Below, one piece after another: positions 1 through 25,943 of a stretch of 64,000 bases of DNA. Location of the stretch: assembly GCA_042570105.1 (NCBI GenBank), contig JBHPHW010000001.1, positions 19,932 to 83,931 of the forward strand, read 5' to 3'. The notes below the pieces were generated by a model. That model was not told the origin of the DNA. It did no database searches and was given only the letters and a program-made list of their open reading frames with translations. Both the position numbers and the translations under genes were made by a program. The number at the start of each line of letters is the position of its first letter. The first letter of the stretch is position 1. The DNA is from Candidatus Omnitrophota bacterium. GTDB taxonomy: Bacteria; Omnitrophota; Gorgyraeia; Gorgyraeales; Gorgyraeaceae.

Positions 1-230
1 TCAAGGATTAAACGATATTATAGGTCGTGTTGAGAAAGTTTTACCCTATATTAATGATAATAGTTTTGATTTGGTGACTATGGTCAATACATTTGGGATT
101 ATGGGGCGCGAGAGGTATGGGGAACCTATTGACCAGGAATGGCTGATGAAAGAAATAGCTAGAATATTAAAACCAGGTTCATTTGTTGCCATATTAGATC
201 CTTTTAGAGATATAACTATTAACAAACAAG
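1..230 (+). other. C-terminal part of a class-I SAM-dependent methyltransferase domain inside the giant protein (FDLV motif II end, then LKPGSFV motif III-like). Implies an MTase domain straddling the window edge.
   Basis: Translation ...NDNSFDLVTMVNTFGIMGRERYGEPIDQEWLMKEIARILKPGSFVAILDPF matches the canonical F-D-x-V ... L-K-P-G-G region of Rossmann-fold MTases. Confidence 0.5.
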
Positions 231-3200
231 AAGAATCAGCCATAAAAGCAGGATTGGATATTGTCCACAGTAAAATCCACTCGCACCCTCATCATTCAGA
301 AAATGTTCTTGTCGCATGCAAGTTCCCTCTAGTAACTCAGGAGGGGCAAATAGAAGATGGTAAGGTCGAAGTCGCCTTTGACTATCTATTTAATCTAGTT
401 GGATTTTCCACTAAATTACGTCGAGTTAGAGAATATGGCAAGACATTGAGAGATTTAATCGATAATCTCGAAGTAAAATATTCTGACATAAGACGTAGAA
501 TTTTAGATAGCGAAGGAGATCTTAGAGAGGTGATAATTATTTCCCGTAATGGAGAGGTGCTTGAAAGAGCTAAGGCCTTGGATACAGAGCTTAATCCTGG
601 CGATGTGGTACAGATTTTTCATAGGGTAGGTGGCGGATCAGGCACTGAGCTTGAAGCGGATTTGACCGAATCGCTTTATGAACTGACAGGTATAGAAAAA
701 CGTATTTGGCAGCACGCCATTAAAGAATTAAAACCTGAAGAGATAGCCCTATTGGACGAAAGGCTTAATTCCCCAGGTTTAGTAGGCCCCTTGCTTATTC
801 ATTTCTATCTGGATACTTATGTTGCAAGAGATAATGGTATTGAGAAGTTAGCAGTACTAGCATTAGATTATCTTGCACAGGAAGATATTGATATAGAAGC
901 TGTCATTAGAGACGAGCACAAAGAAGAATTTGAACAGGTCAGAAGGTTATACTTATGGTATCAATGGAGGATAATAGATGGTAAATACATTGAATATTAT
1001 AATTCTGAGGAAATTGCAAGGATGAGTGGAGTAAGTGTGGATATAGTCAATAGTTATAAAGATATGATCCGAAGGCATCTTGTTTGGATGTACAGTTTGA
1101 ACTGGGTTGTTAGGTGCAGGGAAAGGATTAGAGCCAAAGCAAGGACTAGAGGATGGAGCGAAGAGAAACTTCGAGAAGAATTAGGGGTTTCTGAAGAAAG
1201 ATATGGATATATAGGTTGGGTGGCTGAAAGGATCTGGCCTAGTTATGTTAAGAAAGCTAGTGAGATATTTAGAAAAGAGGTTTCTTTCCTGATGTATGGA
1301 GGTGGAAGGGCCGAGGTGCTCGATAGACTACCTATAGGTAGTCGAATCAGACTATTAAGGTATGAGAAAGGCTTAACTCGAGAGGAATTGGCATTGAGAT
1401 ATGAAGGTAACGCTCGGCTAATAGGAGACTGGGAAAGTGGAATAAGAATACCCAACCCTAACAATATGAAACAATTAGCAGAGGCATTAGGCGTAGAAGT
1501 GAGTGAGGTAATGTATGGTCTAGAGAGAAGCGAGGCATTAAAGGTATTGACCATGGGTGGTCGGATCGAACTATTTAGGTATGAAAGAGGCTTAAGCCAA
1601 AGAGCGCTGGAATCGGAATGTGACATCAGAGTGAATGGTACAGTAGGGGCGTGGGAAAAAGGAAGGGGTATTCATAGAGCCGATGAAGTGAAAAAATTAG
1701 CAGAGGTATTAGGCGTAGAGGTAAGTGAGATTTTGCATGGCCTAGAGAGAAGTGAGGCATTAAAGGTATTAACCCCAGGTGATCGGGTCGAACTATTCAG
1801 ACATGAAAAAGGCCTAGCTAAGGGTAAGTTGGCATCGATGATGAAAGGCATCCCTCTCCCTGAGCGAACGAAAAAGCTGGCAGAAATATTAGGCGTAGAT
1901 GTAAGTGAGATTTTGTATGGTTTAGAGAGAAGTGAGGTATTAAAGGTATTAACCCTCGGTAAGCAAATTAGATTATTTAGGAATGAAGAAGGTTTGACTC
2001 AGGGAATGTTGGCATCGAGATGTGATGTTAATGACTCGACAGTAGAACGCTGGGAAATGGATATAAGAACACCTGAACCTGACAATATGGAGAAGCTAGT
2101 AGAAATATTCCCAGAGCTATCTCAAATTGGTGAGTCGGGCACTGATGGTTCGCCAATAGTTATTGCTGATTGGGATACCCAAGTCGAAGAAGGTCTCAAA
2201 CGTTTATTGTTCACGCCGGTATTTGAAGATAACGAGGCGCTTTGGCAGAAAGCCCTTACGCTATTGCGCACTGATCCGCCACATAGCTTACGATCTCTAT
2301 ATCAAACCTTTCAACGCGTGTTGAATAAAAAAGGATTTCCATTTGGCAAATTCCAAGAAACCTACCGTGGTCGCATTAACTTTACCGAAGAATTGCAGCC
2401 TCCAGTATTAAAGCCATGGCAGGAAACCGAACGCCCATCACTAGATACCATAGCCTATGTAAAGCTACAACAGCGCAAGTTGCTTCATGCGGTCTGGCGG
2501 AGATTACCTTATATATTACATGCTGACCCCGAGAGTCAGTTCGAGATCGTTATTTCAACTATGGGAGAAAATGATATCTTAGATTTACCTCGTAGGGAAG
2601 ATGTACTTTGGGTTGATGTACTTTTGAAGGGAGATACGCCCCTCTATAGAGAACTGAATGCCAAACTGCCAGGGCTAGATTATGAACAACTTCAAGGATC
2701 TCTTGGGATCATTAAACTGATTGCTGCAACCAATGAGCATAATGAACCTGTTTTGATCGCTCCCTGGATAGGAGTAAATCCAGGTATATGGAAATGGGCA
2801 AGTAGAGAGCGGAGTCAGGTTGAAGGGTGGCATCGTGAAGCGCTAACAGCATTAGAACTTCTTAAGGATCAGATTGGTGTAAAGGAAATCCTAATTCCTA
2901 CAAGCACACAGATGAAGGCTCTGCCGCCGTTACAGCAAAAGATTAACGACCATCCACCCTTCGAAAATGTCTTGGGTTTACATTACAGTCGACCATCACC
3001 CCAACACAAGGAAGTTACTCGGACCGTTACTTTATGGAATAACGAGGCAGAAATGACAGCAAAATTCTGGAGTACTGTCTCTGATGGTTCAGAGGGAAGA
3101 GTTGCTCCTTTGATTCCGCAGTGGAAACCGCACCACATAGATGAACGCATTACGGCATTCACACGCAAGGCAAAACTGCATATGTCCGGCATTTTTACAG

Positions 3201-6200
3201 AAAAAGAGATTGATAGCGTCATTCAACGGTTTGAGATTATAGACGAATCCTTGTATCGTAGGCATTTTAGTTTGATTACCGTTGAGTCTAGCTCACCGGG
3301 GGATGAAGAGAGTCCTTCAGAGAACGCATTGTACTTGTTGCAGGTGGCACCTACCCTTCTTGGCGTGAGACCCAAGAGTTATGTCTTAGTAGATTGGCGA
3401 GCAGGGGAGAGTTTTAGTGACATTGAAAAATGGATTTTACAACTCAATGCACTTGCTCCATTGCTATTGCACGTTAATAGAGAACTTGCTCTTAATGTGC
3501 CGTTTGGACAGAGCTTGATTGTTGTCCGTGATTCTGTGATTAATGAACGATTAAATGACCTTATTCGCTCATCAGGATGGGGTCGCGGTATAAGTTATAA
3601 GGAAGAAGAATACGAGTATTGGGCAAAAGAAGGGTTTCCTAGTTTATATGTGGACTTGATGAGGGAGAGAACGAGGCTAGACCAGTCAAAGCCTTCTACA
3701 GGTATTTGGTCTCGTTGGTTAGAAGGAGTTGGCGTGCCGGAGATTGATACGTTGAGCGATGCGGAAACTGTATTATTACAGAGAGAGCTTGATCGATTTG
3801 ATGCAACACTCGAGCTTATGGCTGACTACCTCAGAGAAGTCTGGGGTGTTCCCATAGACTTTCGCAGACTTCCACGATTATTAGGCAAAACAGCTACACG
3901 AAGACGAACTAGAGTAGTTCCGAGGATTTCACTGCCTAAGCAGCAAACGTCTGATCCTGTAACTGACTCATCGGAATCTTCTTATTCAAGACTTAGTTCA
4001 GATCGAAGATTTAGCGTAGATAGCATTCTTATAGATAGCCACCAAGAGCAAGTACGTGAAATCCTGGCAGGATTTATACTTGGTGAGATAAGTGAAGTAG
4101 AGGCAATAGATAGAATTATAGCTTTAGGAATTGACAGAGGTTTGGCAGAGGCGTATACACTGCAGGTTCAAAGCCCTCTTATGATGCTCGGTGGGAAAGA
4201 ACCAGACCCTGCCGGTGGGACGATAGGTACTGCGGTTGTGCCGTTAGATATCCTACCAGACACTGCAGGTGAGCCTGAGACTGATTTTAGCGATTCTAGC
4301 GAATGGGAAACGCCTCTACTTTGGTTAGGGCATGTATTAAATTTATATGATAGTAAAAGTTTTATGAGAAAGGGTAGAGATGTTTCAGATCGGCGCATAT
4401 CGGAAACTGCTCATGGATTTGATGGTCTGCATTTTGATAAAAATAAAGAAGATGCCCTTTATGAATATTATAAGCTTTGCTTGGAATGGGAGCAGGGCTT
4501 GGTGGATTCAGAAGCGATCGATAAGTTTCTGTCTGAGCTTTGGGAAAAAGAGAAACTCATAAAAGAATTAAGCAAAGAGGATAATTGGTATTTGTTTAGC
4601 GCTCTACGTGATGAGAGACAACGTTTTATTTCGATTTCTTGTGCAGAACATTGGTATAGGAATATGGGAATACGTTTGGGTGGGTTGGAAAATAAAATTG
4701 CCAAGACATGTCTTGAGATGATGAAGAAAGATATGGGATCTTTTTCCATGGTTATTCTCCCATTAGTGACAAGTATTATTTCTCACATGCCGCCTCCAGG
4801 GTTGGAGGATTCCGAAGGCTTGGCTGTTATTAGTGAGGTTTCTTTCTGGCAATCGTCTTCTCAAGATAGGCGCTTACGCAGTATTTTTATGCAATTTTAT
4901 CATTTTGTTCCTCATGGGATTTGGGCAGATTATTTAGAAAAACTGTCAAAACACCTTTCTCCTAATGAGGCCCGTCCGATTATTAAGAGGGCTGTAGATA
5001 TTCTAGAAAAGATTTGGAGAGGCCAGCAGAAAATAGATGAAGATTTAGAAGGCCAAATATTACCTCTTTCAGAAGAAGAATGGAGTCGAGAGGTTTTTAT
5101 GTTCTATCTTTTTTTAGCACTAGAAGAAGGTTGTAGTCGGGGTGACATAGAACGCCTTGTGGTAAGGACTATTATTAATCCTGAGACATTACGTATATTC
5201 CCACAAAAAGAATTAGAAAGATTGGAAGCTATTTTAAACGAGATAAAAGAAAGAGGAGTTCCGCCAAAATGGGCTGAGGGTTTACTTGAAAGACAAACTC
5301 ACCTAGAAGCTGAGATTAATAGACGTAGTGGCAAGAGTTCTCAGGATAACGTTTCGGCACAAGAGACCCCTGATGGATTTGTAGTTAAAGGTAAAGCATT
5401 TTTTAATATAGCTTGGAGACATCAATTTGTTCAAAAACTCGATGTAATTTTTGAAAAACCTATACGACACGCAACACGAGAAGTGATGCTAAAGAGTTCC
5501 CTTGAATTTTTATCTGAGGTAGTCGAAAAACGTTCCCTTGACCCTGTTGAAAGAGGAAGTTTACTTGAATGGATGAATGCACCTTACCTCAGTTTAAGCA
5601 GCCATTACTTAATTGTATCGGTATTCTTAAAGGATTTCAAAGCTCGCGCGAAAGAAAGAGCCATTCCAGAGGAAAATATACCATCGATTATTCAAGATAT
5701 AAGAGAAAGAAATACTCTAGTTGCTGACTTACCAGGTTCAGATGTAACAGCAAATGATAGACTAGAATATTTTCGCCAGAACTTGGGTGAATCCTCAGAT
5801 CTCATTCCTTTTGGCTGGGGATATGTGGCCTGTAGTGGAATCCAGGATCCTACGATATATTTCTTAGATCCTCAAGGTTACATAAGTCTACAAAGTTTCA
5901 ATCTTAAATGGGCCTTGGAGAAGAATTTTGATGTACCTTATCCGGTATTACAAGCTTATCCTGAATGGGATATAGGTAGTCTATCGGGCTGGTGGATTGA
6001 AGCAGAAGATTTTGAAAAGCTGGTTCCCAAATTATTAGAAGTGAAAGATTCTGCACCAGAAGAAATCAAGGAGCAATTGGAGAGACTCAGACAGGAGATT
6101 ATAGAAAGATGTAATGATTCGCCTTATTTAACTTGGGAAGGGTCGATTGGAGTAATACATGGTCTTTTGCGCCAGTATCCAGGCTGGAAAGATGGCGAAG

Positions 6201-9200
6201 GCCTCCTAAAGGAATTAAGAGAAATGCCAAGGGCTCCAAATGGAACGCAGGATAACGAGATAGCCTTCTTCCATATTTTTGGAGATGGTCACGCACAACG
6301 CTTACCCGATGTTTTAAATATGAAACACTGTAGTCGTGATTGGCGACTTTATGGTCAGATGGGGAAACCTAAATTTAAAATTGAAGCTCGGTGGGGATTA
6401 GATGGTAGATGTAGGGCAACTTTAGGTGGAAGGGCTTATATTGGAGGATCAGGACCTAGGACTTACAGGTTTAGTTTTAAAGACGGAGATTTTACTACAG
6501 AGAAGACCCTTGATGCAATGTGGGTCAGATTATGGCCACATGAGAAGGAGCATAAACTTTTGGTCACCTCTAATAGGGGTATGACCCTTTTTGTTAGAGA
6601 TGAGCAAGATGTAAAAGTTTTATGGGAGCTTCCTTTAGCCATGCAGGTTGTTGATAGAGTCAGATGGATTGGAGAAGGAGATCGTCTATCGTGGCTATTA
6701 GTTGAAACTCCAGATAAAGTTTTTATTGTTGATGCAAGAACTGGAGAAATAAAAGAAAGGTTCCACTTACCTATTAAGGGAGTAGATATCGAATGTGATT
6801 TTGAGGATGAGGATTATAAATATCTATATTTAACAGTACATACCCATAATCTAGCTGGCGGACATATTACTGAAGAAGGTATTCAGTATGGACCAGTCTG
6901 GTCGGTTGATCTTTTAAAAATGGCAGAGGAGGAGGGAGAAGTACGGCAGAGCCCTCTACCGGTTACGCCGCGTGTCATTGAGAAGTTGCGACAAGCGCTA
7001 AAAGAGGTCAACGTAGATACGACGTCACTTACCGATGAACAGATCGAGCAGTTATACAGGATCATTCGCCACCGGGAGAGAAGGCCTAAACAGCATCTGC
7101 GTCAGATTGCAGATCTTACGCGGGGGAGTAGTTTGGGATGGAATGTTAGTATGCGCCAGCGCGTGAGAGACGTATTGGCAGATTTTGCGAAGACAGCTCT
7201 TACGGAAAATCTTACAGGTAGACAGTTACAGGAGATTGGGGCTGGACAACAGGTGAGGGTGTTGACCGGGCAGGGTCTTGATTACGTCATCAAAGTTCAG
7301 AGGTATAGGGAGGAAATCAGAGCCACGTACGACAGAATGGACGTTGATCCCCAAAGCTTCGAATATCAATTTGCGGTCAGGAGAACATTTGAAGGCTATC
7401 AAGAGGGCAATCGGACCGCAGAGGAGATTCTGAAGGACACTGGGACGATTTTGGAAATTGAGTCACTTGCCAGTCACGGTGTTTCGCTGACGTTTACTAA
7501 TAAAGCCGGTGAGCAGGAAACCGTTTCTCCTGACTCCTTTGAAGTGCAAAAGCGGGCTGACTACACAGGTGGTGAGATGTTGGAACGATTGATTAATGAA
7601 GGACGAATCGATGAAGCGAAGCAACTACTTACGGACTTCTTTGAACTCAATCACAAGCTCTGGCGTCTCGGTGTGTTGCTCTATGATTTTAATATCCTAG
7701 AAAACATCGGAGTGATGGTTGATGCCGATGGTCAGTTCCAGCTGTATTTGATGGATTTTGGGGCTACATTGCGCGAATCACCACTAACGCATCGATGGGT
7801 AAACACACTCTTTCCTACAGGGTTTTTTATGGGAGGAGATACCATCTTTGGAAGGTCACCACATATTGTAGTGTTGAAGGATGAATTGCGGCGCTTCGGG
7901 GATACGAACGGCGAGGTGTTCAGTCACTGGGTGAAGTTGGTTAGAGAGTATCTCACTATTGGACAGTTTAATGCTATCTGGCGCATCGACGTTGTTGATC
8001 AGGGGATAGTAGATGAGAAGCATCCTATCTCTAGCAGCTGGACGCGGAAGGCTATGGTCACTTCAGGATTAGGTGCTGTTATTTCAGCTGGTCTAATTGG
8101 ACTAGCATCGCAATTACCCGAATTAAAGAATATCCTCTATATTATACTTCCTGTGTTGGGAGTGAGCTTTATCTTTACTAACGGTATCCTTTATGCCCTT
8201 CATCGTAATCTCAGGAGGCTGGAGGATCAGATTTCCACTGGCACTATCCGTGCTGGGCCGCATTCCTTAATAAGACCTTTCCACAATGCCCTTCCCAGTG
8301 AAGAAAATTCGCCTTATCTTGCTTATGCAAACTCAGGCATCCTTTATGTAAATAAAGGAGCGCTCACCAATCTTAATCCTATTTTACAATACGCAGTTTA
8401 CCTACATGAATTAACCATACATATTATTCCTTATATTCTTTGGGGGATCTTCTGCGATTTGCTGTGGATTAAAAGAGGAATTCGAGAGGTTAAGATAGGC
8501 CAAGTTCATTTAATAACTGCTAGACATTTTGATAATAGAACTATCAACGAATTTCGACTTGCTTTAGATAAATGTCAGAATAAAAAAGAGGTTCTTGGAC
8601 TTTTGGAGAAATATCAACCTCTTCTGGAAGGGACTGAAAGGGCTGTAGAGCAAATCCTTCAATATGTAAAGCAGGGTAAAAAAGTAGCCGTCGGCGTAGA
8701 GCAAGATCCTTCTGCCTTAAAAGAAATTTTACAAGAAATGCCAGAAAACATAGCAAATTTAAGAATAATAATGCAGAGGAAAAGAATTGATTGGACTGAT
8801 GCGAATTCCGATATCTTTGAAAAAATAATTTCCATTTATTCAAAGATCGCAGGTGTCTTGTATTTCAGCCACAAAGAATTACTCGACAGTGGTCAAGTTG
8901 AATTAATAGGACTAGATTCAGACCGCTTAAGAAATGTACCAAGCATAGTTACTGATGATGCGAGGGGGCAAGCTATTGCGCTCTTAGGAACTCTTTCTCA
9001 GATGAGCATGGAGGTCGTCGAGGAAGAACTGGAGATAAGAGATGCTCATATGTCAAAAAAGATTTTGTCCTATTATAAAAATCCAGATAAAAGCGATGTT
9101 ACGTTTGTAGTGCTTCTTGGTTCAAGACATTTTAGGCGAATGAAGAACAATTTGATTGTACTAGGTTTACACGAATTAGTCGATTGGTACGCTCTCCAGC

Positions 9201-12200
9201 CAGGTGAAGTATCAGCTAGGTGGATTCGTAAAGCAAAAGATTTGTTGTTAGAATTAAGTCAATATGGCTGGTTAGGTATGGGATATTTAAAGGATTTATC
9301 CCCCGATGTAATTATAAAGCTTTCCAGAGCAATCTATGTCCACAGGAAGAAAGAATCTAACGATTTTGAGGGATCAGAGGTTGTTGAGAGGTTTTGGAAA
9401 AACAGTCATATTACATACGAATATGCAGAAAGATTTGGTGAGGTTTATGCTTATTGGTATGCGCAGCTCGATGATGCCAAGAAAAGCGGGAAATTAATAA
9501 AACTACCTACTTTTGGAGAAGATGATGAAGTACTTGATATAGGTTCTGGTTTGAGCGGGCTTAATATAATAGAAAATTGGGATAGTCCTGCAAGAATAAC
9601 ATTACTGGGCAATGACCCATTTGTTATAGCTATGTTAATGACTGCCAAACGTATCTACGGTAGAAATAATATCAAAATAGTTTATTCATATGTTAATGAA
9701 TGGAGATTTCCAGAAGATACGTTTACCTATATCCGCGCAGATAAGATTTTACCGTATCTCTCAGAAGAAGAAAGGGAAAGGCTTTTTGAAGAAGTTTATT
9801 CTGCTTTACGAAATGGAGGTACATTTGCTTCAGTAAATATAACAGACGATTTGGATCTCCCAGAGGAATGCGCAAGCAGTTTAAGGGAATTAGGTTTAGA
9901 TGCTGTAGTCCGTCCTTTGCCGTATGAATTTGATGAAATATCCGATGCTATAAAAGTTGGTATTTTTGCAGTTAAAAAATCGGGAGGTATAATCGATTCG
10001 CAGCTGAGTGAGCGTGGACGAAAGTTAGTGGAGTGGGTCGAAGAATCCCAGGGCGTTGATGTTACCGAGCTTCGGGAATGGCTAGACTTTACAAAGATTC
10101 GGAACGAAGCGCAAGGGGGATTTGTCATTCTGGATTGGACGACGTTCTGGGGATTGTCGTGGGGATCATTGTCTAGTTTGATCAAGACAATTGTCAGTGA
10201 CAATCTGGAGCCTCTTGATGATGCATTGCGAAGAGAGAAGCAGTACATTGTTTCGAGCGCTGAGAAGGCATTGCACGAAGCCATTAAGAATGCCGAGATA
10301 TGGGGCAGCGACCACCTACCAGGACATTTAGCCATTGTCACGTGGCATATCGCGCCAGACGGACTGACATTTCATATTATTGATGAAGCGGTGGGACAGT
10401 CAGATACAGAGCTGGAATCCCCCAGACTGGTTCCAGGCTCCAGACCTCTTCCATCTGATGGATGGATAGGTGATGGAGAAGGTATTCGACAGATTGAGCA
10501 GTTGGGTTTCAGTGTTGAGGCCCATGCGATCGTTAAGGATGGTAGCCGTCTCGGGACGGATGTGATACTTCGAAAGAATTTCGTAGCTCGCAAGGGACAG
10601 ATTTCTAGCAGGCTCAAGAGATTTTTAATTGTTCCATCAGTTGTAATAGCTGGTTTGTTTCTGTCGGGATTCACTGGTGACTATGAGGATGTTTTAAATT
10701 TAGTACTGGGTATTTTTTCTGCAGTAGTGCTTATAGGTGCATGGGGATATATCTTGTCGCCAAAACTGGTAGAGTGGTGGGGACACTTCTGGGATTGGTT
10801 TAAGGGATATTATCTTCAGATAGGAATCGTACTCTTAGTAATTGGCGTCTCTTTTCCTATTTTTCTATATCAGGGTAATATAAAGGAGGTAATGGGAGAG
10901 TTTGGTTATCTGGGAGCATTCCTCATCTCAATGGTTAATAATTTGACAGTAATTGTTCCTGGACCGGGTATTTTAGCAGCTATTTCTTTAGCCACAGAAT
11001 TCAATCCTTGGCTAATAGCTTTTTTGGCTGGACTGGGAGCAACTTTTGGTCAGGTTACAAGTTATGGCCTTGGTTACAGTAGCGAGCCAGTAGTTAAGAA
11101 AGTATGGGGATATAAAAGAATATCTGGTGGGATGCGAAGATGGGGAGGTCCATTTATCTTTCTTATGTATTTGCTGCCTCCTGTGTTTCCTTTCGCTGAT
11201 ATTGCAGGCATAATAGCGGGTACCTTAAGGTACCCGCTATTAAAATATTTTCTATATTGTATGCCGGGGAATATTCTAAAACATATATATCTTGTCTGGG
11301 GTGGCGTTTTGGGATGGGATGCCTTAAGTCCCTTTCTCCCTGATATATTCAAATTAGGATCTAGTTCAATCGAAAGTAACATGATGGCCTTTTTGCCATT
11401 TGCAGGCCTTTTCATGGTCGGAGGAGTTTTATCCGGACCCACAACAAAGATAGCAGCAGAAAGAGATGAAAATGGCGTGACAGTAAGCTTACCAGGAAAT
11501 GGAGGGAAGAGTAAGGTAAGATTTTCAAGAGAAGAGGTGCTTATATTGACTGCTCGTGGACAATCTAGCGAAGAATTGGCCGAAGAGACCGGCATAGATC
11601 TACCTAGTAGGATACTATTATTAAAAAGGAGTATTTTTTCCAAGCTAAAAGAGGCCTGGGTAGCGTTTGATACACTTGATGATGCAAGAGATATGTATCT
11701 TAGCGCAATAAAGAGAGAGTTATTAAAGAAAGGGTATCCGGAAGCCATAGTTAATGTGGCGGCCATGAGCGAGACTCCCTGGAAGGAGGCAAGAAGAGTT
11801 CTCAATGAAATACAAATACGCCTCGATGAAGGACGTTCACCGAGTTTAGCCCTTCCGTGGGCAATTATATATCGCTCACCTAGACAAGCAATAAATCTGG
11901 GCACAGAGATAGCTATGCAGGAATTTTTGAATGAGGCATCTTCCCCTGAAAGGAGAAATGAATCTATAAGATTTCTTAGAGAACTAGAAAGGGTAGCTCC
12001 TGAAGAAGATATTAATATGGAGATAATAAGGATTTGTTCTCTAAGTCCGGAAACGATAGAGATGTTTGCTAGAGAAAAGAGTTCGGATGTATTCGGAGAT
12101 TTAATTAAAGATGCACTCTCGAAGCCTCTTCTTACGCCAAACCAGAGGAGGATCTTAAACACGGTTAAGGAAAATCCTGGTCTAATAGAAGCAGAAATTT

Positions 12201-15200
12201 CCAGAAGAACGGGATTTATGGAGAGTACAGTTACCCGAAATATAAGGATACTTGAATCTAAACGCCTGGTTCAGACAGCGAGGGTAAAAGGAAGGGTTGA
12301 GGTATATCTCTATGGACAGGTTCCAGAAGATGCCCTACTAACCATAGATAGGATCTTAGCTTTACTCAGGAAAAACCCACAACAGGGTTTAACAATAAAA
12401 GCGATTGCTCGCAGAATAGGGGTTTCGAAATCAACTGTTAGAAGGAATGTAGACGTTCTTAAATCCAAAGGATTAGTTAAGATAGTGAAGGAAGGAAGGG
12501 GTTTTAGAGTCTATTTGCCAAGTAAATTTCAAGAGACAGCCAGGGAAAAGATCCTAAATGCACTCAGAGAAGATCCCGAAAAGGTCTTAAGAAAGAGTAC
12601 GATAGGCAGAAAGGCAGGGATCCCTAAAACCACAGTCAAGCGACATATAGATATCCTTGAGTCCGAAGGATTAGTCAGGACAAAAGAGGTAGTGGGAGGG
12701 ATTGGTGTCTATTTGCCAGATGAGGTTCCAGAAGATATTTTGACAACCGATGAGAAGATCCTAAAAGCACTTGGAGAAGAAAATGATCTGACGCAGGAGG
12801 CACTTTCCAAGAAGACAGGCCTACATGTAGACACAGTGGGTAGCGCAGTAAAGAGGCTTGAAGCTAAAGGATTGCTTAAAATAGAGAAATCAGGTATCAG
12901 AAATGCGAACAGGGTGCACCTTAAAACTGATAAAGATGCAAGTCTGATTAAACCTGCAATTTCAGGTGGTTCGGAGGAAAGTTTTGTACTTCAACTGCCC
13001 GATGGTACAGCTCATATTTTTGCCCCTGGGGACAGAATTAGGCATCCTCTTTACGGCAATGGGATAATCTTAGAAGTGGTTCCAGACAAAGATGGTGTTC
13101 CTGGGGTTAATATTGAATTTAGTTATAGCAAAGAGGGACAAGCAAAGCTATCGTTATGCCTTGAACTTAGTGCTCTTCAAGGGAAGCTTTCTCCTCTCGA
13201 AAGGGAGAGTGGGAGTTTAGTAAAGAGAGAAAATGAAGACTCTTTAGATGATACAGAGAGGAATATATTAGGTTTAATGGCAAAGGGCAAGACATATCGA
13301 GAGATAGCTGAAGAAACAGAAATTCCAGTAAAAAAAATTACTACCTCGATTTTTTCAGCTATACGCAGGAAATTTAAAACAACTAGCCGCGGTGACCCAG
13401 ATCTTAGACTAAGGACCATAATAATCGGAGCCAAGAGAGGTGATATCGAAGACTTAAACATAGCAAATTTTGTACGCAGAATAGATAGGTTACTCATTAT
13501 AACCAGGACCCTCTTAAATGGACAGGAAGATGCTATAGTAGCATTTATGGATGAGGGTTTTTCAAATAGAGAGATAGCCAGCGAATTAGGCATAGAAGAA
13601 GGTGAGGTAGAGGCGCATATCTCTAATATAAACAGGGAATTAAAAGAATCGATAGAGGAAATTACAGAAGAGTCAATCCTGAACCTAGAGGAAACAGGGA
13701 CAATTCTTCCTTTGTCAGATCTTGAGAGAGAGATATTGAGGGCCAATGGAGATTCTCCTAGAGAGGTAGCAGAAGAGTTGGATAAGGCAGGTGGGCAAAT
13801 CGAGAGTTATTGGAATAGTATCTTGGTTAAATTCAATGTAAGTACAATAACTGAGGCAAGAAAGATATTTTTCGTGAAGATAAGGGGAGGACTCTTAGAA
13901 CAAGGATACCCTGAGCTTATAGCCGATGGAGTAGCCAGAGACAAAAATCCCGTAAAAGAAGCTAGAGAGCTTTTAGGCAGACAAGAAGGCTTTATCGAAG
14001 ACGGATATCCGCCAAGATTGGCTTCTCTCCTGGCGCTTAAGGAAAGAGACCCCGAAAATATAATAGAGCTAGGGATAGAAATAGCCATACAAGAATTCCT
14101 AGAAGGCAGAAATTCTAAGTGCATAGAGTTTCTTGAAGGATTGATGGAGGAAGTTTCTATAGAGGATATAACCGATAAGATAAGGAATATTTGTTTAAGA
14201 GACCTAGAAATACTAAAAGGATTTTCTAGAATAAAACAATCAACTAGATTTGGGGACTTGATCAAAAGCATAATTCCAGACACGCCAAACCAGGAAAAGA
14301 CCCTAAAAATAGTACAAGAAAACCCAGGATTAACAGCAAGAGAAATTGCAGGAAGGACACAGGCTGCAATACGCACGGTTAATCGGCATGTAAAAGAGCT
14401 TAAGGACAAAGATCTGATCGAGACTCGGAGGGTAGGGAGAGAAGTTAGAGTTTTTCTGAAAGGTGAAGTCCCGGCAGATGTTCTTACGTACCGGGAAAAG
14501 ATCCTAAAAATAGTACAAGAAAACCCAGGATTAATAATAACAGAAATTGCAAGAAGGACGCGGATTCCAGGAACCACGGTTAGGCGGCATGTAGAAGAGC
14601 TTGAATCCAAAGATCTGATCGAGACTCGGAGGGTAGGGATAGAAGTTAGAGTTTTCCTGAAAGGTGAAGTCCCGGCAGATATTCTTACATCCCGGGAAAG
14701 GATCCTAAAAATACTAAAAGAAAACCCAGGATTAACAACAACAGAAATTGCAAGAAGGACGCAGATTCCAGGAACCACGGTTAGGCGGCATGTAAAAGAT
14801 ATTGAATCCACTGATGCTGATAGAGAAGACGCGGGTGGTGAGGAGAGTACGCCTCAGCCTCTAGTGGCTGTTGCTGGACCAGGTACCTGGGCCCCCGAAG
14901 GTGAATTGGTTGCGCTAGTGGATAGTGAACTGCCACGAGGTGCCAGACAACACCATCCGGAGAATCTGTTTGATGATCAGATAGAGCGCATGCTGTATCC
15001 GGAACATCAGCAAAGGGGAGGCGGCAGCAATGCCACTGAATCTCATATGACAACGCTCGTTGACCAAGTGCGTGAGGGAAATCCAACAGCCATCCAAGAA
15101 GCTATTGCGTTATTGAAGAAAACTTCGTCTAGCCTGCTAGATAGCCAGATGAATGAGTTAGAACAAGCTGTATGTGAATCGCTCGAGATATTTTTCCATG

Positions 15201-18200
15201 AGATCAACCCAGCTTTTCAAGAGGCGTTGCGTGAGGGGACTTCATTCATTGAGCCAGCGACCCCACCAATAGGGAGGTACAGCTACCCCATAAAGAGGTA
15301 CCGCTATCCCATTTGCTGTATGGCGTCTTCAGGCGCGATGTTACAGATTGTTAAGGAGCGTTTCGGTAAGGACATTGAAATCTCAGCCGTCCGAGCCGAC
15401 ATACACAAGGGTAGCTCAGAGAAACATGACTGGAACGAGCTAAAGATAGGTAGTAGGCGGTTCTATTTGAGTTTCACAGACCACCAGTTTGATAGGAGGC
15501 TGTGGGTACACAATCCGCGCGATAGGAGTAAATGGTATGTCAATGAGCGCGATGTTCAAGACTACGATGATTTATCAGCAGAAGAACGCGATAGATTGGT
15601 CGTTTTTGAGGAGATTACCGGAATAGAAGAGGCATTTTATAAAGATCATGGCCTGACGTTCGTGGAGCCCAATTTCAACAAGTTTGACAATGAAGACGAA
15701 ATCCAACGTGTCATCGCGTTTTTCTATGAAATAAGTGATCAGAAAGAGCTCGAATCCACAGCAGCTGGCGAGTCAAGAGATGAGTTAGCTATTGCGCCAC
15801 GCATCTCAGAAGGAATCCAGGAGAGAAAATCCCTTACTCCCTTAGGTCAAAAGATGTATGACTGGTGGGTTGCTCTAATTCACGAAAACCCAGAAAAGGT
15901 CTATCAGATACAGCTCAAGAAAACGATCGCCCAGGCAGTAGAAGTCGATCCAAAAACTGTTTTCAATAACCGGGCAAAAGTCAATCAGCATTTGAACGCT
16001 GACGGTTATCCTATCATTCCCAATAATGTGGCAGATGTTATTTATAACTGGTGGGTTGCCTTGATAAAAGAAAATCCAGAAAAGGCTTATCAAGTACAGT
16101 TCAAGGAAGCGATCGCCAAGGCAATAGGAGTCCAGCCAAAAACTGTCTCTCATAACCTGGCAGGGATCAACCGGCGTCTCAAGGATGACGATCATCTGGT
16201 TATTCCCAATAAAGTAGCAGATGCCGTTTACAATTGGTGGCGTATCGCAATAGAGGAAGATCCAGAAAAGGTCTATCAGATACATTACCGAAAAGTAATA
16301 GCTCAAGCTGTAAGCGTCAAAGAAAATACTATTACCCATTACCTTACAGAAGTTAATCAACGTTTGAAAAATGACGGACATCTTATCATTCCCAATAATG
16401 CTGCAGATGCTATTTACAATTGGTGGTTTGTCCTAATCGCGCAAGATCCAGAACAGGCTTATCAAAAACAGTCCCGGGAAACAATAAGAAAGGCTACAAG
16501 GATCAATATACACAGCGTCTCAACAAATAACCTTGCAAAAGTCAATCAGCGTCTTGAGTCTGAAGGCCGTCCTCAGATTAAGGTAGGGAGAAGGAGTAGG
16601 GCAGAAGAATCCGAACAACCTGAGCGGCCTTTAGCCATCACATCCGCACGTGGACGCGAATTCCATAGATTAGAAAATGGAATGTTGCTACCCGGACCGT
16701 TTACACCTCAAGACATTGACCCATTATCTCTCTTATTCGGCAATAGAGGGACGACCACTCCTCACACAAATCGTGGAGTGCCAGATGTTTTATCTTTAGA
16801 CTTTTTGGGATTAGGGGGAGGAAGAGCACGCGGATATCAGAGGAAAAAATATCCCTCTATAGCTCAGAGCAGTCACCGCCCAGGTGGAGACCGTAAATTT
16901 CCGATCATCACAGGTGGTTCTGAGCCTAGAATACAAGGAAGATCTATCCCCTACTCAGATGAAGAAAAAGAAATATTAATGGCTTATGGAGAAACAATAG
17001 AAACTATAAATAAGGAGTTGCCTCATATAGTAAGTAGGAGGATCGAACTTCTTATTAGTAGTATCGAGGTTAAATCTGACAGAAGTCTCCTGGAGGCAAG
17101 AGAAGATTTTCTACCAATAGGGGACAAACTTTCAAGAAAAGGGTATTCTTCCAATATAATCGAATCAGTAAATCAAAAGATTGAAGAAGGATACCCTGAA
17201 AGCTTAGCTTTCCCTGGAGCAATTATGGCACAGGACCCTAAGAGGGCAGCAGAACTAGGGGTAGCGCAAGCCTTTCGAGAATACTGGCAAACCAGAAACC
17301 CTAAATGCATGGAATTCATTAGAGAACTTTCAGTAATTTCTGAAGAAGATGTTGATAATGAGATATGGAAGATCTATCAAACAAAGACAAGAGAGATGCT
17401 TAGATTTATCCGGATAATCGTGATGATATTCCCTGCATTTATACCTAGAGCAAGAAAGAGGAAAATCCTGGGATTTGTTAAAGAGAATCCTGGAGCAGAG
17501 CAGAGAGAGATTGAAAAAGAGCTAAAGATTCCCAGCTCTTCACTTTCCAAGGACATAGATGAATTAGAAGAAGAAGGTTTAATTGAGAAAAGAAGAGCAG
17601 GTGGACAGAACAGGATCTATCCAAAAGGTAAAGTGCCTGATATTGTCCTCCCAAGAATACAGGAAAGGATCCTAAATGTCATTAAAGAAAAACCAGGACT
17701 AATCGGCGCAGACATTGGAAGGGAATTAGATATCCCCTGGTTTAATGTAGGTTACAACATACGTAGGTTGGAAAAAAGAAGATTGATTAAAAAAGTAGAA
17801 GTAAGAGGAGAGGCTAGAATTTATCTTGAGGGCGAGACTCCAGAGACGGCTCTTACAAAAAGAGAAGAGGAAATACTCAGACTAGTAAGGGAAAAGCCAG
17901 GATTAACGCATGCAGAAATTGCAAGAAGGATAGGATTAACGCCAATCACAATAAAAATTAATACAGAAAGACTAGAAGAGTTAGATTTGGTTGAAAGAGT
18001 AAAACTATTAAAGTGGGACAGGATCTATCCCAAAGGTGAAGTCCCCGAGGTACCTCTTATTGAAAGACAGAAGAGAATCTACAGAGCGATCCAGGATAAC
18101 CCGGGAATATCTCAAAGAGAACTTGAGGAGAAGGCAAAAGTTACCGAAGGTACAGTCAGAAGAGATCTAAAAAAATTAAAAGAGGTGGGTTTAGTAAGGA

Positions 18201-21200
18201 TGTTTAGGGTAGGTAGGGGTTATAGGATATATCCGGAAGATAAGGCTCCTGAAAGCCCTCTTACAGTAATACAAGAGACGATTCTAGAAGATGTTAAGAA
18301 AAATCGTGGCACAACGCAAGCAGCCATTGCAAAAAGGACAGGATACAAAAACGGTGTAGTTAGCTCTAATTTAAGAAAATTAGAAGAAATAGGGAAGGTT
18401 GAGATACTGAGGACAGGATTAGGTACCAGGGTCTACTTAAAGGGTAGAGCTCCGAAGGTTTCTCTTACGCAAAGAGAAGAAAGAATACTCAGGCTAGTAA
18501 GGAGAAATCACGGATTAACGTTAAAAGAGATTGATGAAAGGCTAAGAATCCCTCGGGGCACAACTAACTATAATGTAAAAAAGTTAGAGCAATCAGGAGA
18601 GGTTGAAACAATAGAAGTAGAAGGAAAAATAAAGGTCTATCCAAAAGGTAAAGTTCCCAAGGTCGTTCTTTCCAAAAGGCAAAGTGAAATTTTTGATATA
18701 GTTAAAGAAACCCCTGGAATCACACGCCCAGAACTTGCAAGAAGGGTAGAAATTACTGGAGCAGCATTAGATAAGCATAGAGCCAGATTAGAACAAAAGG
18801 GTTTGATCGAAATAGTGAGGGTTGAAAAGGAAATTAGAATCTATGAAAAAGGAAAGGCTCCTAAAACCCCTATTACTACAAACCAGGAGACTATCCTGGA
18901 AGTAGCCAGAGACTTCCCTGGGCTGACATATGAAGAAATTTTTCAGTTAGGGTTATTCGCATTTATAAATACCGTTGGAGGAGTTGCAAGAAGGTTAAGA
19001 GCAAAGGGCTTGGTCAGGATAATAAGAGACGGACAAACAATGAGGGTTTATTCGACTGAAGAAGGGGAGACGATTTTAGAACATTTGAAACCTATTAAAA
19101 GTCTTCCTGCATCAGTTGTCTATCATGGACTTTCTATAACTGTGAGAGAATTTATAGATACTTTAGAAATAAAAGATAAGATCTTAGACGACCAGGGTAA
19201 TCTTAAAGTTAATATTTATATTAACGATGAAGCAGCAAGGCTTGATAGTCTTATTGAAAACGATGATAAGGTAAGCATTATGTCGATTGGGGCCAAAAGT
19301 GATAAAGGTTCCTCTGCGACATTTAGTTTAGGAGGCACCTGGATGCTTGTAAGACTTATTTCTTTAGCTGCAATGATTGCGTTGTTCACATTACCTGTAT
19401 CATGGCGTGGCTTAGGATTTGCTACAATAATAGCAATGGTTGACTTAGATCAGTTTTGTGCTGCTGTAGATCCCCGTATAGTGCGTTTATTCTCAGGCCG
19501 TGGAAATCGAGGTCTCTTGCGTCCCTTTTCAAACGCAGAGCCCTTGGACCAACTCGAAGTTTCTGAGCGGACAATAAAGCATGGTATCTATAATGGAAAG
19601 CCTACTATCTCTCTTGTTAAAGATGGAAAGATATATGCTGATAAAGACAAACTCAGCCACATAGGTCCTTACAACCAGCTCTTAATATATATTCACGAGC
19701 TCTTCCACAAGTTGTTGTGGTTTGGGGAAGGACGACATTGGAAAGAACTATTCGCAAATATAGGTGTTGCTAGTTTCTTACTTGTAAAGAATGTAGCGCC
19801 GCTCCTTCTTATTCTCATCTTTACAGACATAACAAATATGTTGGCCCTTATTCCTCTCATTATAACGCCCATCCTTTCACATAAGTTCTTCAGTGCGATT
19901 GCAGCTAGGTGGACTGTGGGGCGCGTTACACTTATAGCTGGAAAGGATTTAGAAGAGAAGATCAAGGAAGTTGTGAGTCTAATGAAGTCAAGGGAATATG
20001 ATCGTGCGCTTCAGATTATTAATCCACTAATCGAAGAGCACAGAAGATACATCCTTTCAGAGTTACGCGCTGAAGCTTCAAATGGACTCCAAAGAAGCAT
20101 TGCTGAAAGATTGTCCAGCGAGATAGACTTTAATTTACCCCTTAAAGACCAGGCAGTATTCGATGCGGTATCGATGATGGCAAGACACGGAGCATATTCA
20201 CGATACTCTAGTGTTACTATGGAGAATTTAGGTTCTCTTATGGTTTTTCATGATCTTTCTTTACATCTTAAAGAGAACGGCATGATATCTAACAGCAATG
20301 ACTTAAAGGAACTCTATGATGGATTTCTCCAGCCCTATCGATATGCAACAGCAGGAGTGCCAGTTCTCAATATTGCCGCACGAATAAAGCCTTTTAGCTT
20401 GGACTTGATGAACCACATGTCGGAAGAATTTTACATGTATTGCTGGAGAGCAATAAGAGCTCAAAGAAATTATATTTTGCGTGCAGTGGATCATATATGG
20501 AATAGCCTGGTGGGCGTCTTTTTGGTCGTAAGGAATCTTATTCAGGTAAGCTTGGTCTCGCATAAGATTCGCCGTAAGATAGAAGAGCGTAACGCCATGG
20601 TTGCTCAAATCTTGTTATCGCATCTGGGGGAGGATTCAGGATTTAAGACACGTATCTCCCGCCTTAAGAATGCGCCAGATGTTCTCGGGAGTCTTTATAA
20701 AAGTGAGCCCATAGATTTTGCAGCATTGCTTGCGCTGGTTGACACAAGCGGGTTTTATTACTCGGCACCAAGCGTGGCCACCGAACACGAAAAGGGACAA
20801 ATAGTCCGAAAAGGGAAGGAGATTGTTAATATCGGTGTGGATGCCAGTATGTATCACCCATTAGACGTAGATTATTTATCACTCTTAGAAGAAGGACATA
20901 ATAGGGATGATGCAAACATGGTTCTTATCCATGACAGCTCAAAGGTCAGCATTAAGAAGGTAAATGGTAAAAAGGTTATCTCTGTGAGTGAAGGTATTAT
21001 GTTTCATAATAGAGCGTTAAAGCTAGTGAGGTTTGATGAACCTCTGACATTACATTACATTGCAAATTTCCAAGGCGGAATTGATGGATACATTAGTAAA
21101 GTGAATGTTCCTAGTTGTGGCCATAGTAGTATTACAGATTACACTGAAGAAAAAGATATATCAGACCTCATTCTTAGAGAGAGCGGCATAAGCTTGCCAG

Positions 21201-24200
21201 AGACTTCTGCGATCATAGTGAGAGATAGTGGGGTCGCTAGCCTTGTTGAACGACGCAAGAACGCAGATAATGTCTATATCATGACCCAAGAGGATCATAA
21301 AGAGATGAGAGAATTTGACGATCCCACTTTTAGGGGTCGTATAAAAGAGATGTTAATAGGATTCTTAAAAGGACATAAACTTGAAGAAGCTGTTTTAAAG
21401 CCTAATCGAGCAGCTCACGGAGACGATGTATTATTTTTCGATGAACAAAATCTGGATGAAGCTACTGATAAGGCACTACAACTTTTACAGGCAGGGCAAA
21501 ACATAATCATGCAGGAGCGCATTAAGCCTCCCTTTGTGATGGAAGAAGATGGACCAAAAGACTGGAACCTCAGGATCTTTGTCTCGCACGATCAACACGA
21601 TCAACCTATTGTTAGTGATATGGATAATATGCTTGTACGCATTGATAAAGAAGGAGATGCTGTTAATATCAGTAAGACAGCTAAAGTGTGCACAATTGAG
21701 GAAGTCGCGTCTCAATTGGGTATCTCCGAGATCGAACTAGGAGAGATAAAAGAGCAGGTGGAAGAGATTTCAATAAAGGCATTTCAGGCAATTGAGAATG
21801 CTATGAGAGATGATAAGGTATTAGGTGATTCTGAACATTCTACAGATTTAATGGGAGTCGATGTGATGGTAGTTAAGGAAGAAGGAAAATGGGTTGTGTA
21901 TATGATCGAGGTAAATGATTTTCACTCAGGAGGTCAGGGTTTCTTGGATAGACATTTACGTGAACTCCAGGCGCAGGGCGTTACAATCGCAAAAGATAGT
22001 ATAGGGAAGGCAAATCGTGACTTTGTAGCTACTATGGTTCGCCGAGCGCAGAAATACGCTGGAGTCGTTGATTTTAATCCCTCTATATACCGTAAAATCA
22101 GAGCCCAGTTAAAGCGCCTTAGATATTCCGACGCCTATAGTAATAAAGTTTTCGGAGAGCTAATATCGAGGGATAGACACATGCCAAATGGAGATGCATC
22201 AAGGCCTGATGCTTCTAGTATGGAAGATCAGTTAGAGCTTATAAAGAGAGATATCGAAGAGCTTGTCAGAAAAAAGACAGACCGATCGGATAGAACGTTC
22301 AATATCTACTGTGTTGGTATTGGTCAAGATACTATTGGAACAACCACTATACTTCAAATACTCTACGAAACGCTCCTCGGGAGGCAAAAGGTGTTGTCGG
22401 AATCAGATAAGCCAAAAGCAGATCCAGAAAATTGCACTGTAAGAATATTCCGGATAGACCCAAGAGAAGAAGTTGTTGAAAAGGCACAGGCCTACTTTGA
22501 TGAGGTTATGGCTAATCCACTTGAGAGTATTGGCGTAAATTTTGGCACTTTGGTAGTAGAAGCACATTGTGCTAATGCGCTTGATCCTGATCAACTGAGT
22601 GAAGTTAAAAGGCATATTCGCTCAAGTCATAAAAAGAGATGGTACCAGAGAAACTTTGACGCTGATTATGTTTTTCATCGTAGTCTGTCATATCCAAATA
22701 GTATGGCCCAAGACCCAGAGAGCGCTCTTTATAAAGATCTTAGATCTATGAGCGTTGAGGATATGGCGACTTTTATAGATATGTTTTTACAAAGTTATAA
22801 TGTTTTACTTGCGTTTGGAAAGAATGGTACACATTACATTGTTGAGCCAGGAGGCATTGGTCATTCTCGACATCTTAAAGATGATCGTGAAAGTTATGAA
22901 GTTGGAGTCTATCGAGTTCCTGGGACAAAGATAATAACTAGACGTGAGTTAATGTCAATGACTGATGACCAAGACCCACAGATCCCCTTGGGAAGCATAG
23001 GAGATCGCGCAACAGGGATACTTAAAGTAAATAATATAAATGCTGTTAGAAAGATGAAACTCCAGAACTTTCAACAGGCAATAGAGGATAGCAAAGCGAA
23101 GACAGTTAAAAAACTACTTGATGCAGCACCTCTCATTAAAACAGAAGGACTACTGCCCGATGGTACTGAATGGCGCATTGAACCATTTGAAAAATCCGAT
23201 AAACGTTTGCTTAATGAATGGTTCGCTTACGAGAATAGAAGCTTACTAATCCCAGTTACTACACATTATCTTAGATCTTTTTTAAGGTCTGGAGGTTTTG
23301 ACTATAAATTTATAACGATAAATTCTGAAGGCGAAGAGAGAATCGAAGGAGTATTAGGACATAGCCATAGGTTTCCTTCTGGTTGGAGGTATGATCTTAA
23401 GGGATTTAAGGCATGGTGGCCTTATATAGATATAGTAGAACTTGCTTCTTGGAATAGAGGTCGAAAAAGACAAATAAAAGGTATTGCATCAAGACTTATG
23501 GCAGTAACTATTAGGGATTATCTATTCCAAGGCTTTGATGGTAGGACGCTAGTATGTGCTGAAACTAGGGATGGTCGACGTTTAGTAAGTAGAATTGGAT
23601 TTGAACCAATAAGCCATAGAGGTTTCTTCCCTCACTGGTATGAACTTACTCCAGAGAAGGCCTTAGAATTTCTTGAGCAACAGATTAAATTAGAAAGCGA
23701 TAAAGGTGATAGCGCTGTAAACCAGACTACAGAGGCAAAGGAATTGGTTGAACCAGTTGATCCTAATGAAATTCAAACTTCTCCTATCGGACCATCCTAC
23801 CAATTTGTAGGAGATTTTTCGGAAAAGGGCTCTATGCTCAGGGCTCAAGTTAAAAGTGAAGTAGGGCTTCAGTATGAGTTAAGTATTGAGAGAATACCGG
23901 CTGAGTCAAGTATCGAGAGTATACTAATACATAGAGATTCTTATGATTACAACCTCCGGTATAACGGTAGTCAAGTTATGAATATTAGAGTTACCAATGT
24001 AGATGGCAAAATTTATATTGGATATATAGGGCGAGCAGATCGCGATAGAATTCATGACGGCGTATATTATATGCTTTTTAATATTATGCTTTGCGACCTA
24101 AAAGATAGAGTTGGCTTGGACTTTAATGGATTAAAAGTAGGAGGTGTAATGGGACTTAGATATTCAAACCCGAGAATTGCAGCAGGCTCAAATAGGTTTG

Positions 24201-25861: not shown

Positions 25862-25943
25862 AAAACTTTAGAAAAAACTTTAAAAATTTGAAACATTGTG
25901 GTAGACTTGTTGCATTAAGTAACGCCACGGAAGGAGGTGAAAC

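Follow-up and report, generated by a model that had tools for sequence, protein, structure and literature searches.

Three families of helix-turn-helix (HTH) domains without a wing, LuxR/GerE (PF00196), sigma-70 region 4 (PF04545/PF08281) and HTH_10 (PF04967; bacterio-opsin-activator type), are the nearest described counterparts of a repeat in a giant protein of a Candidatus Omnitrophota bacterium (Gorgyraeaceae). The repeat consists of four tandem units, here termed NWW units. It is encoded in a 64,000-nt stretch of contig JBHPHW010000001.1 (assembly GCA_042570105.1, positions 19,932 to 83,931, forward strand), referred to as the window. The NWW unit is a divergent wingless HTH with a core nearest to the three families above. 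Its distinctive features are a first helix that is long and aromatic and the conserved linker G(K/R)PxI...IPNN, and no existing family model describes it. The fold itself is old; new are the subfamily, the architecture of the array and its context. The array is proposed to bind DNA and to tie it to the membrane-bound giant protein, a reading that is given a probability of about 0.6.

The literature has so far treated giant proteins of the Omnitrophota as surface, adhesion, cell-wall-degrading or multi-enzyme proteins. A search of the literature on these proteins yielded no description of HTH content or HTH arrays. A new HTH subfamily alone would be unsurprising to specialists; odd are many HTH arrays in one membrane-anchored giant protein. 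Existing domain libraries overlook the NWW unit within this protein.

Comparison with described systems

The core of the NWW unit, IAxxxG(I/V)SxxTVxxxLxx(I/V)NxRL, parallels the GerE pattern IAxxLxISxxTVKxHxxxIxxKL, and an LTP motif at the N-terminus of unit 1 is a further likeness to LuxR/GerE. The units share the wingless form with LuxR/GerE, sigma-70 region 4 and HTH_10, and cut-offs of these families are passed with scores summed over arrays. Single NWW units differ from GerE, yielding about 13 bits with profile positions 21-46 of 57 aligned and no match to the full profile. In AlphaFold2 (AF2) models, a coil linker replaces the fourth helix of LuxR. Helix 1 exceeds that of the three families in length and has an aromatic motif (YxWW); an additional short helix comes after it. 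The units are organized in head-to-tail arrays instead of a single C-terminal output domain, and partner domains such as a receiver, an autoinducer domain or sigma region 2 are missing. Sigma70_r2 gave no match for the giant open reading frame (ORF) among the best 25 families per chunk; the sigma likeness is confined to the HTH core.

Myb R2R3, DUX4 and the TALE-class homeodomains (Exd/PBX/MEIS) also form small three-helix HTH units in tandem with conserved aromatic core residues, and each unit is expected to insert helix 3 into a major groove. TALE-class homeodomains and DUX4 were the top Foldseek neighbours of one NWW unit (query-normalised template modelling score, TMq, 0.36-0.48), but at E-values of 0.8-1.0, which are not significant. 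No Myb or Homeodomain match appeared in Pfam at E <= 10. Myb follows the spacing W-x19-W-x19-W, whereas the NWW aromatics Y10, W12 and W13 are clustered in helix 1. These eukaryotic families have flexible linkers, while the NWW array is predicted to be rigid.

The winged-HTH arrays (HTH_24/MarR_2) of the giant protein itself are tandem as well and have units of similar size (67-68 versus 62 aa). Columns 27-55 of an 18-unit family alignment, comprising the window units and their relatives, were compared with the HTH cores of the giant protein by hhalign. The probability was 92 % for the winged, 85 % for the LuxR-like and 6 % for the XRE-type units, and the alignments with the first two fall on helix 2-turn-helix 3. 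The winged units differ in having a beta-hairpin wing and in passing the Pfam cut-offs easily; the NWW units lack the wing and match in BLAST only each other.

TALE, BurrH and MOrTL proteins resemble the NWW array as rigid tandem arrays with one reading element per repeat and few variable positions, an analogy of principle only. TALE repeats are two-helix hairpins of 33-35 aa that address one base each via the repeat-variable diresidue loop (PMC4787788, PMC4066763). The NWW unit differs with 62-63 aa, four helices and an HTH.

The NWW array

The array of four tandem wingless HTH units occupies window positions 15830..16576 (+), aa 5254-5502 of the giant protein (aa numbers are counted from the TTG at nt 71). 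A preliminary description, made from the DNA letters alone, had placed a four-copy repeat of 62 aa at 15857-16600, which is the same array shifted by 9 codons. The domain phase is better when begun 9 residues earlier, with SLTPLGQKM in unit 1 and IPNNxADxI in units 2-4 (IPNNVADVI in one). Unit 1 (15830..16015 (+), aa 5254-5315; SLTPLGQKMYDWW...NADGYPI) starts with the LTP motif instead of IPNN, and its HTH core is predicted at about nt 15917-16000. Unit 2 (16016..16201 (+), aa 5316-5377; IPNNVADVIYNWW...KDDDHLV) and unit 3 (16202..16387 (+), aa 5378-5439; IPNKVADAVYNWW...KNDGHLI) have predicted HTH cores at about nt 16103-16186 and 16289-16372, respectively. Unit 4 (16388..16576 (+), aa 5440-5502; IPNNAADAIYNWW...SEGRPQ) comprises 63 aa; one additional codon sits where helix 3 begins, and the HTH core is predicted at about nt 16475-16561. 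The unit ends in RPQIKVGRRSRA without the IPNNxADAI tail, and no further unit follows.

The YDWW/YNWW motifs start at aa 5263, 5325, 5387 and 5449 (nt 15857, 16043, 16229 and 16415), in steps of exactly 186 nt. A repeat search detected three full 186-nt copies with 100/75/68 % identity and a 48-nt core in four copies, spaced 186, 186 and 189 nt. The last spacing reveals one extra codon in unit 4 (..SVSTNNLAK..). The perfect spacing noted at first therefore applies to the unit starts, not to the interior of unit 4. Tandem Repeats Finder scored the first 2.3 copies only (74 % matches, score 439). Identity between the copies is 65-75 % on the nucleotide level, and 35-56 % between the translated units in the phase used previously. 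Unit pairs matched in blastp with E-values of 1e-11 to 1e-22 (search space 3 Mb); the repeat is thus real, and chance or low complexity is ruled out as its source.

Ratios of non-synonymous to synonymous substitution rates (dN/dS, Nei-Gojobori) among units 1-3 were 0.16-0.56 at dS values of 0.8-2.0. Between units 2 and 3, synonymous sites are near saturation (dS about 2). The copies are therefore old, under purifying selection and kept as protein. A free-standing small gene for the units is ruled out, as they lie in frame within a 25.8-kb ORF. An antisense ORF at 15875-16381 (-), 168 aa, lies wholly inside the array and is itself repetitive. It is most likely spurious, a mirror of the repeat.

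Relatives of the NWW unit

A profile of the four units was searched against 1.84 billion representative proteins and obtained nine matches, six of which are true relatives. The matches P0004, P0008 and P0009 were rejected as spurious repeat proteins. The same domain thus occurs in at least six other proteins, with 25-43 % identity, in accordance with the suggestion that the repeat be sought elsewhere. P0001 is a complete ORF of 1,045 aa with two units between blocks of transmembrane (TM) segments, followed by a region containing HExxH. P0002 is a C-terminal protein fragment on contig L083 with at least two units. P0003 and P0010 cover a fragment (at least 4,113 aa) of a further giant membrane protein; the truncated end of this fragment carries two or more units. 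P0005 and P0006 are overlapping fragments from two metagenome-assembled genomes; joined, they show HATPase_c at the front, a Ser/Thr kinase at the end and at least seven units in between. P0007 (NCBI MBN1869732.1) is a giant protein of 7,270 aa with three units at aa 4691-4889. The arrays accordingly hold two to at least seven units and reside in membrane, kinase-linked or giant proteins.

All relatives with a source name originate from Candidatus Omnitrophota, with one or two members per cluster. No additional members were detected when GTDB species genomes, JGI metagenome contigs and viral contigs were scanned with NWW DNA patterns, so that the family counts as rare and, to date, as confined to the Omnitrophota. 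A word-index protein search returned no match for the array or the 18-unit alignment although relatives are in the collection, which is taken as a limit of that tool for short queries. A defined NWW family is searchable and would annotate Omnitrophota proteins that are now named 'hypothetical', 'ATP-binding protein' or 'SAM-dependent methyltransferase'.

Several observations were made around the relatives. On contig L081, the gene of P0001 and a divergently oriented parA-parB pair (L081 3545-5911) lie some 2 kb apart. An HHESIH motif after its NWW array and TM block (L081 about 10600-10750) is similar to the HExxH module of the giant protein. Just upstream of the P0007 units, at aa 4480-4680, a short motif occurs three times (...GRWPAALRRAGL / FGSWPAALKELD / FGSWPNMVTKVK) and looks like another small repeated helical module. 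A search of seven sequences with the NWW-family profile also picked up, weakly, the segment aa 293-337 of the window protein (nt 947-1081; LYLWYQWRIIDGKYIEYYNSEEIARMSGVSVDIVNSYKDMIRRHL; domain E 0.037), perhaps a strongly diverged fifth unit standing alone or just another HTH.

Helix-turn-helix identity of the unit

The four-unit array matched Pfam GerE, the LuxR-type HTH, with 24.5 bits (E 2e-5) over profile positions 21-46, which correspond to helix 2-turn-helix 3. The gathering cut-off of 23.5 bits was passed solely by summing two stretches of the array. The best match of a single unit was that of unit 3, residues 22-47, to the same profile positions (13.1 bits, E 0.078). Relatives passed more cut-offs. 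P0006 scored 55.5 bits with HTH_10, 39 with HTH_Crp_2, 37.6 with GerE and 33.2 with Sigma70_r4, all above cut-off. P0005 reached 41.8 bits with HTH_10 (cut-off 23.1 bits); the scores of both proteins are summed over their arrays. P0001 exceeded the cut-offs of HTH_Crp_2 (34.4 bits) and Crp (25.8 bits). Scanned singly, eight of the 18 units of the family alignment matched HTH_10 (E <= 1, best 2.4e-5), and HTH_Crp_2, LacI, HTH_24, GerE, HTH_3 and Sigma70_r4 were also found. HTH_10 was matched neither by the window array nor by its single units, and window unit 2 matches nothing at E <= 1.

The profile of the family alignment was compared with the PDB. Almost all matches were HTH domains, weak and all over profile positions 21-60. 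They included 2x48 (best, E 1e-3), SigF region 4 (E 0.004-0.0075), HipB, RhlR, SmtB, SpoIIID, ComA, CRP and GerE. Columns 36 (I/L), 37 (A), 40 (A/V/I), 41 (G in the majority) and 42 (I/V) fit the classical 20-residue HTH signature, as do columns 48 (V/I), 53 (L), 56 (V/I) and 60 (L, invariant). The column consensus reads IAxx(A/V)G(I/V)Sxx(T/S)V..L..(V/I)N.RL, and Y10, W12 and L55 are invariant or nearly so. High-entropy columns are the remaining positions of helix 3, located between the conserved hydrophobic columns; they are variable and polar.

The NWW unit very probably adopts the HTH fold. The preliminary description had likened the segment KTV..NLA..N.RL to an HTH recognition helix as in sigma region 4 or Fis. 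The HTH fold is supported by the GerE match, the cut-offs passed by relatives, the PDB profile matches, the AF2 and Foldseek results and the signature. The likeness to Fis was abandoned, as HTH_8 is not matched by the NWW units. The unit had not been assigned to a family, and it keeps this position, with no whole-unit model in Pfam or NCBIfam and six relatives among the 1.84 billion representatives. No RNA-binding family was matched in Pfam scans of the array and the units.

Predicted structure

Unit 2 alone, modelled by AF2 on an 18-row alignment, obtained a predicted local distance difference test score (pLDDT) of 89.4 and a predicted template modelling score (pTM) of 0.75. Helices were predicted at residues 5-19, 21-25, 30-37 and 41-57. 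The array model (aa 5250-5512, 9-row alignment) had a pLDDT of 87.2 and a pTM of 0.77, with values above 88 for the linkers of units 2-4. The predicted unit starts with a long aromatic helix α1 (xIYNWWxxLI) and a short helix, followed by helix 2 (xxIAxAxG), a tight turn and a long helix 3 (xTVSxxLxxVNxRL). After helix 3, a non-helical linker of 8-9 residues (DGxxIIPNN) caps the next unit in the model. A beta-wing is absent from the unit model, and the array model displays only two-residue bridges in unit 4. A pTM of 0.77 for four small domains suggests a fixed packing rather than beads on a string.

In Foldseek comparisons of one unit with the PDB, all of the top 50 neighbours were HTH DNA-binding domains (TMq 0.31-0.62). 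They included TALE-class homeodomains, DUX4, Zα, LexA, Rex, Lrp/AsnC, SigF, SmtB, TraR, ComA and EsrB. The array had no counterpart among viral models (best E 8e-3, TM 0.24). Structure and profile searches, which the preliminary description had recommended for one unit and for the array, thus pointed to HTH domains, at levels that are not significant in Foldseek. A confident assignment to a fold that does not bind nucleic acids did not emerge.

The giant protein

The ORF holding the NWW units extends over 2..25861 (+) and is listed as 71-25861 with 8,596 aa. As frame 2 has no stop upstream as far as the window's first base, the protein must exceed 8,619 aa, and its N-terminus lies outside the window. 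Pfam, NCBIfam and home-made hidden Markov models (HMMs) identified about 28 HTH domains of four kinds. An XRE-type array of four units is located at 1343..2128 (+), aa 425-686. At least five LuxR-like units start at aa 3818, 4392, 4481, 4548 and 5628 according to domain maps and HMMs. The last of them, YSDEEKEILMAYGE... (16952..17110 (+), aa 5628-5680), lies just downstream of the NWW array and opens the third super-block described below. Winged-HTH units amount to 15 in three arrays, with four units at 12143..12928 (+), aa 4025-4286, three upstream of the NWW array at 14291..14815 (+), aa 4741-4915, and eight of the MarR/ArsR/HTH_24 type downstream of it at 17459..19063 (+), aa 5797-6331. The three-unit array coincides with a 201-nt tandem repeat (window 14289-14826, 2.7 copies, 87 % identity) encoding near-identical units. 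At 87 % versus 65-75 % nucleotide identity, this duplication is much younger than the NWW array.

The LuxR-like and winged units are organized in three paralogous super-blocks, aa 3841-4300, 4561-4960 and 5671-6340 (window 11591-12970, 13751-14950 and 17081-19090). In each, some 170 aa of helical sequence with the motif ..GYPE.. lie between a LuxR-like HTH and a winged-HTH array of four, three or eight units, respectively. The NWW block is located between the second and the third super-block. Its flanks, aa 4916-5253 and 5503-5630, gave no match in Pfam or NCBIfam.

The context recurs on contig L083, which belongs to another Omnitrophota metagenome-assembled genome. There, an NWW array ends one protein and is followed by an ORF of 84 aa with GerE and by an ORF of 3,071 aa. 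The latter matches the second super-block of the giant protein with 35 % identity over 477 aa (L083 nt 687-1991). Two genomes therefore agree in the succession of NWW array, LuxR-like HTH and winged-HTH array, with the modules either fused or split. In addition, the 3,071-aa ORF matches the membrane region aa 3576-3765 of the giant protein, and the product of this part of L083 has a VTT/DedA domain.

Clusters of predicted TM segments were located by hydropathy at about aa 2661-2800 and, on the Kyte-Doolittle scale, at 10622..11437 (+), aa 3518-3789, and at 19343..19900 (+), aa 6425-6610, the last together with HExxH. The latter two flank the HTH-rich part, which thus appears as a stretch of about 2,600 residues bounded by predicted membrane anchors. 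A module of TM segments and an HExxH-like motif (LHELTIH / IHELFHKL) is duplicated at window 8261-8470 and 19511-19810 (aa 2731-2800 and 6481-6580). Its sole Pfam hint is Peptidase_M1 (E 0.067), and it could be a small membrane metallopeptidase-like element.

Near the N-terminal end of the ORF, a ubiquitin-fold (beta-grasp) domain of the ThiS/MoaD/SAMP1 kind is encoded at nt 431-637, aa 121-189 (Pfam ThiS 47 bits; NCBIfam MoaD and SAMP1 below cut-off). The Gly-Gly that is usually C-terminal is internal here (...HRVGGGSGTE...), which is unusual for a sulfur-carrier or modifier fold. The internal GGG may hint at processing.

Proposed function

In the proposed mechanism, each NWW unit would lay helix 3 into the major groove of DNA, and the short conserved linkers would hold the four units in fixed register. 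With the register fixed by the capped linkers, the array may read a long or reiterated site or grip DNA with high avidity. In this it would cooperate with the LuxR-like and winged-HTH arrays located after it. The HTH-rich central part is probably cytoplasmic and, since it is bounded by membrane anchors, DNA would be held at the giant membrane protein. With its predicted membrane spans and about 28 domains of DNA-binding type in four classes, a polypeptide exceeding 8,600 residues could link the chromosome, or the regulation of genes, directly with a giant membrane assembly. Should the predicted rigid packing hold, the array would be a natural fixed-register multi-HTH DNA reader of relevance to protein design.

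A more far-reaching form of the proposal, a rigid 'HTH solenoid', is improbable. Here, the IPNN linkers would fix four heads (elsewhere at least seven) so that successive helices read successive grooves, and hypervariable residues where helix 3 begins would provide the specificity. In combination with the LuxR-like and winged arrays, the solenoid would turn a membrane-embedded giant protein into a direct chromosome-to-membrane tether or a nucleoid organiser in Omnitrophota. This would represent a mode of DNA recognition and nucleoid anchoring so far undescribed in bacteria.

Several results speak against DNA binding at the membrane. Single window units match nothing at any Pfam cut-off, and a profile of the four window units obtained no PDB match at E <= 10. 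Foldseek E-values against the PDB were not significant for the unit (best 0.79), and the array had no counterpart there (best 0.18). The window units are nearly uncharged (net 0 to +2). The canonical turn glycine (AIGVQPKTV) is present in unit 2 only of the window array, while the others carry E, S or R. The high pTM of the array stems from a 9-row alignment, and AF2 is inclined to regularise repeats. The models were judged by summary statistics. Candidate target repeats in the few intergenic regions of the window were limited to trivial two-copy repeats of 11-21 bp. Overall, DNA binding by the array is somewhat favoured.

As the main alternative, the HTH fold may serve protein-protein interaction. 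The units would then make up a rigid helical rod by which parts of the giant protein, or its partners, are spaced or docked, and would bind no nucleic acid. Precedents are sigma region 4, which binds anti-sigma factors, and the winged helices in cullins and ESCRT-II. The near-neutral window units and the turn glycine missing in three of four fit a scaffold; the pTM of 0.77 with confident linkers likewise suggests a rod rather than independent DNA-reading heads. One of the PDB profile matches (8jzt) shows SigF bound to its anti-sigma factor, and tandem-repeat scaffolds are a recognised class in Omnitrophota giant proteins (10.64898/2026.06.07.730766). Charge in the wider family argues the other way. 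Net values of +2 to +12 per unit were obtained for 13 of 14 units of the relatives (0 in the remaining one), and the window array has an isoelectric point of 9.0 within a giant protein of 5.8. Moreover, the side of helix 3 that is exposed is the one with variable, polar or basic residues, as DNA-reading HTH domains also have it, and the array is surrounded by about 24 further HTH domains from families that classically bind DNA. A pure scaffold is accordingly considered unlikely, at odds of about one in four. It would add a further case of an HTH fold recruited as structural repeat.

DNA binding without tethering would result if the giant ORF were a fusion or polyprotein of separate regulators and the NWW array an ordinary transcription factor module, acting after proteolytic release or, in other genomes, as a protein of its own. 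This differs from the proposed DNA-binding membrane protein in the higher-order role only and is rather improbable. The same modules occur as separate ORFs on L083, but these may be artefacts of assembly or frameshifts. HExxH motifs stand beside TM segments twice in the giant protein and once in P0001, and the beta-grasp domain with its internal GGG lies near the N-terminus; yet no protease family was recognised beyond the Peptidase_M1 hint, and cleavage sites are not known. The fusion of the array to HATPase_c and a Ser/Thr kinase in P0005 and P0006 is reminiscent of one-component regulators.

Recently expanded, non-functional filler, or binding of RNA rather than DNA, is very improbable: the rarity of the family and the richness of giant Omnitrophota genes in internal tandem repeats (10.64898/2026.06.07.730766) would suit filler, but the dN/dS and dS values denote old, constrained copies, the domain is kept in the six or more other proteins with a confident fold prediction, and the Pfam scans lack any RNA-binding family.

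Further features of the window

At the very start of the window (1-130), the first residues of the giant ORF frame (QGLNDIIGRVEKVLPYINDNSFDLVTMVNTFGIMG...EWLMKEIARILKPGSFVAILDP) resemble the C-terminal half of a class I methyltransferase. Domain maps place a methyltransferase at about aa 3155-3250 and another at the C-terminus of the giant protein. A 12-bp direct repeat, AAAAAACTTTAG in 2.2 copies (25860-25886), overlaps the stop codon of the giant gene. A small unlisted ORF of 112 aa follows 83 nt after this stop (25944-26279 (+)) and encodes PilZ (Pfam 34.5 bits, E 2.7e-8), a domain of the type that binds cyclic di-GMP.

Outside the giant gene, the window is ordinary chromosomal DNA of a diderm bacterium, with genes for an ABC sugar transporter, GH2, ROK and an OEP/HlyD/AcrB efflux system. 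Further genes encode the type II secretion proteins F and J, YchF, PurH, a Mur ligase, MnmE and a histidine kinase. The PurH sequence shares 80 % and 78 % identity with those of two metagenome-assembled genomes, of which one bears the label Omnitrophota (UBA10183) and the other is mislabelled 'Planctomycetia'; Omnitrophota also account for most of the matches ranking next. Scans of the window for tRNA and Rfam families detected no RNA genes. The mnmE gene, which is frequently found close to oriC, is located at 55296-56693.

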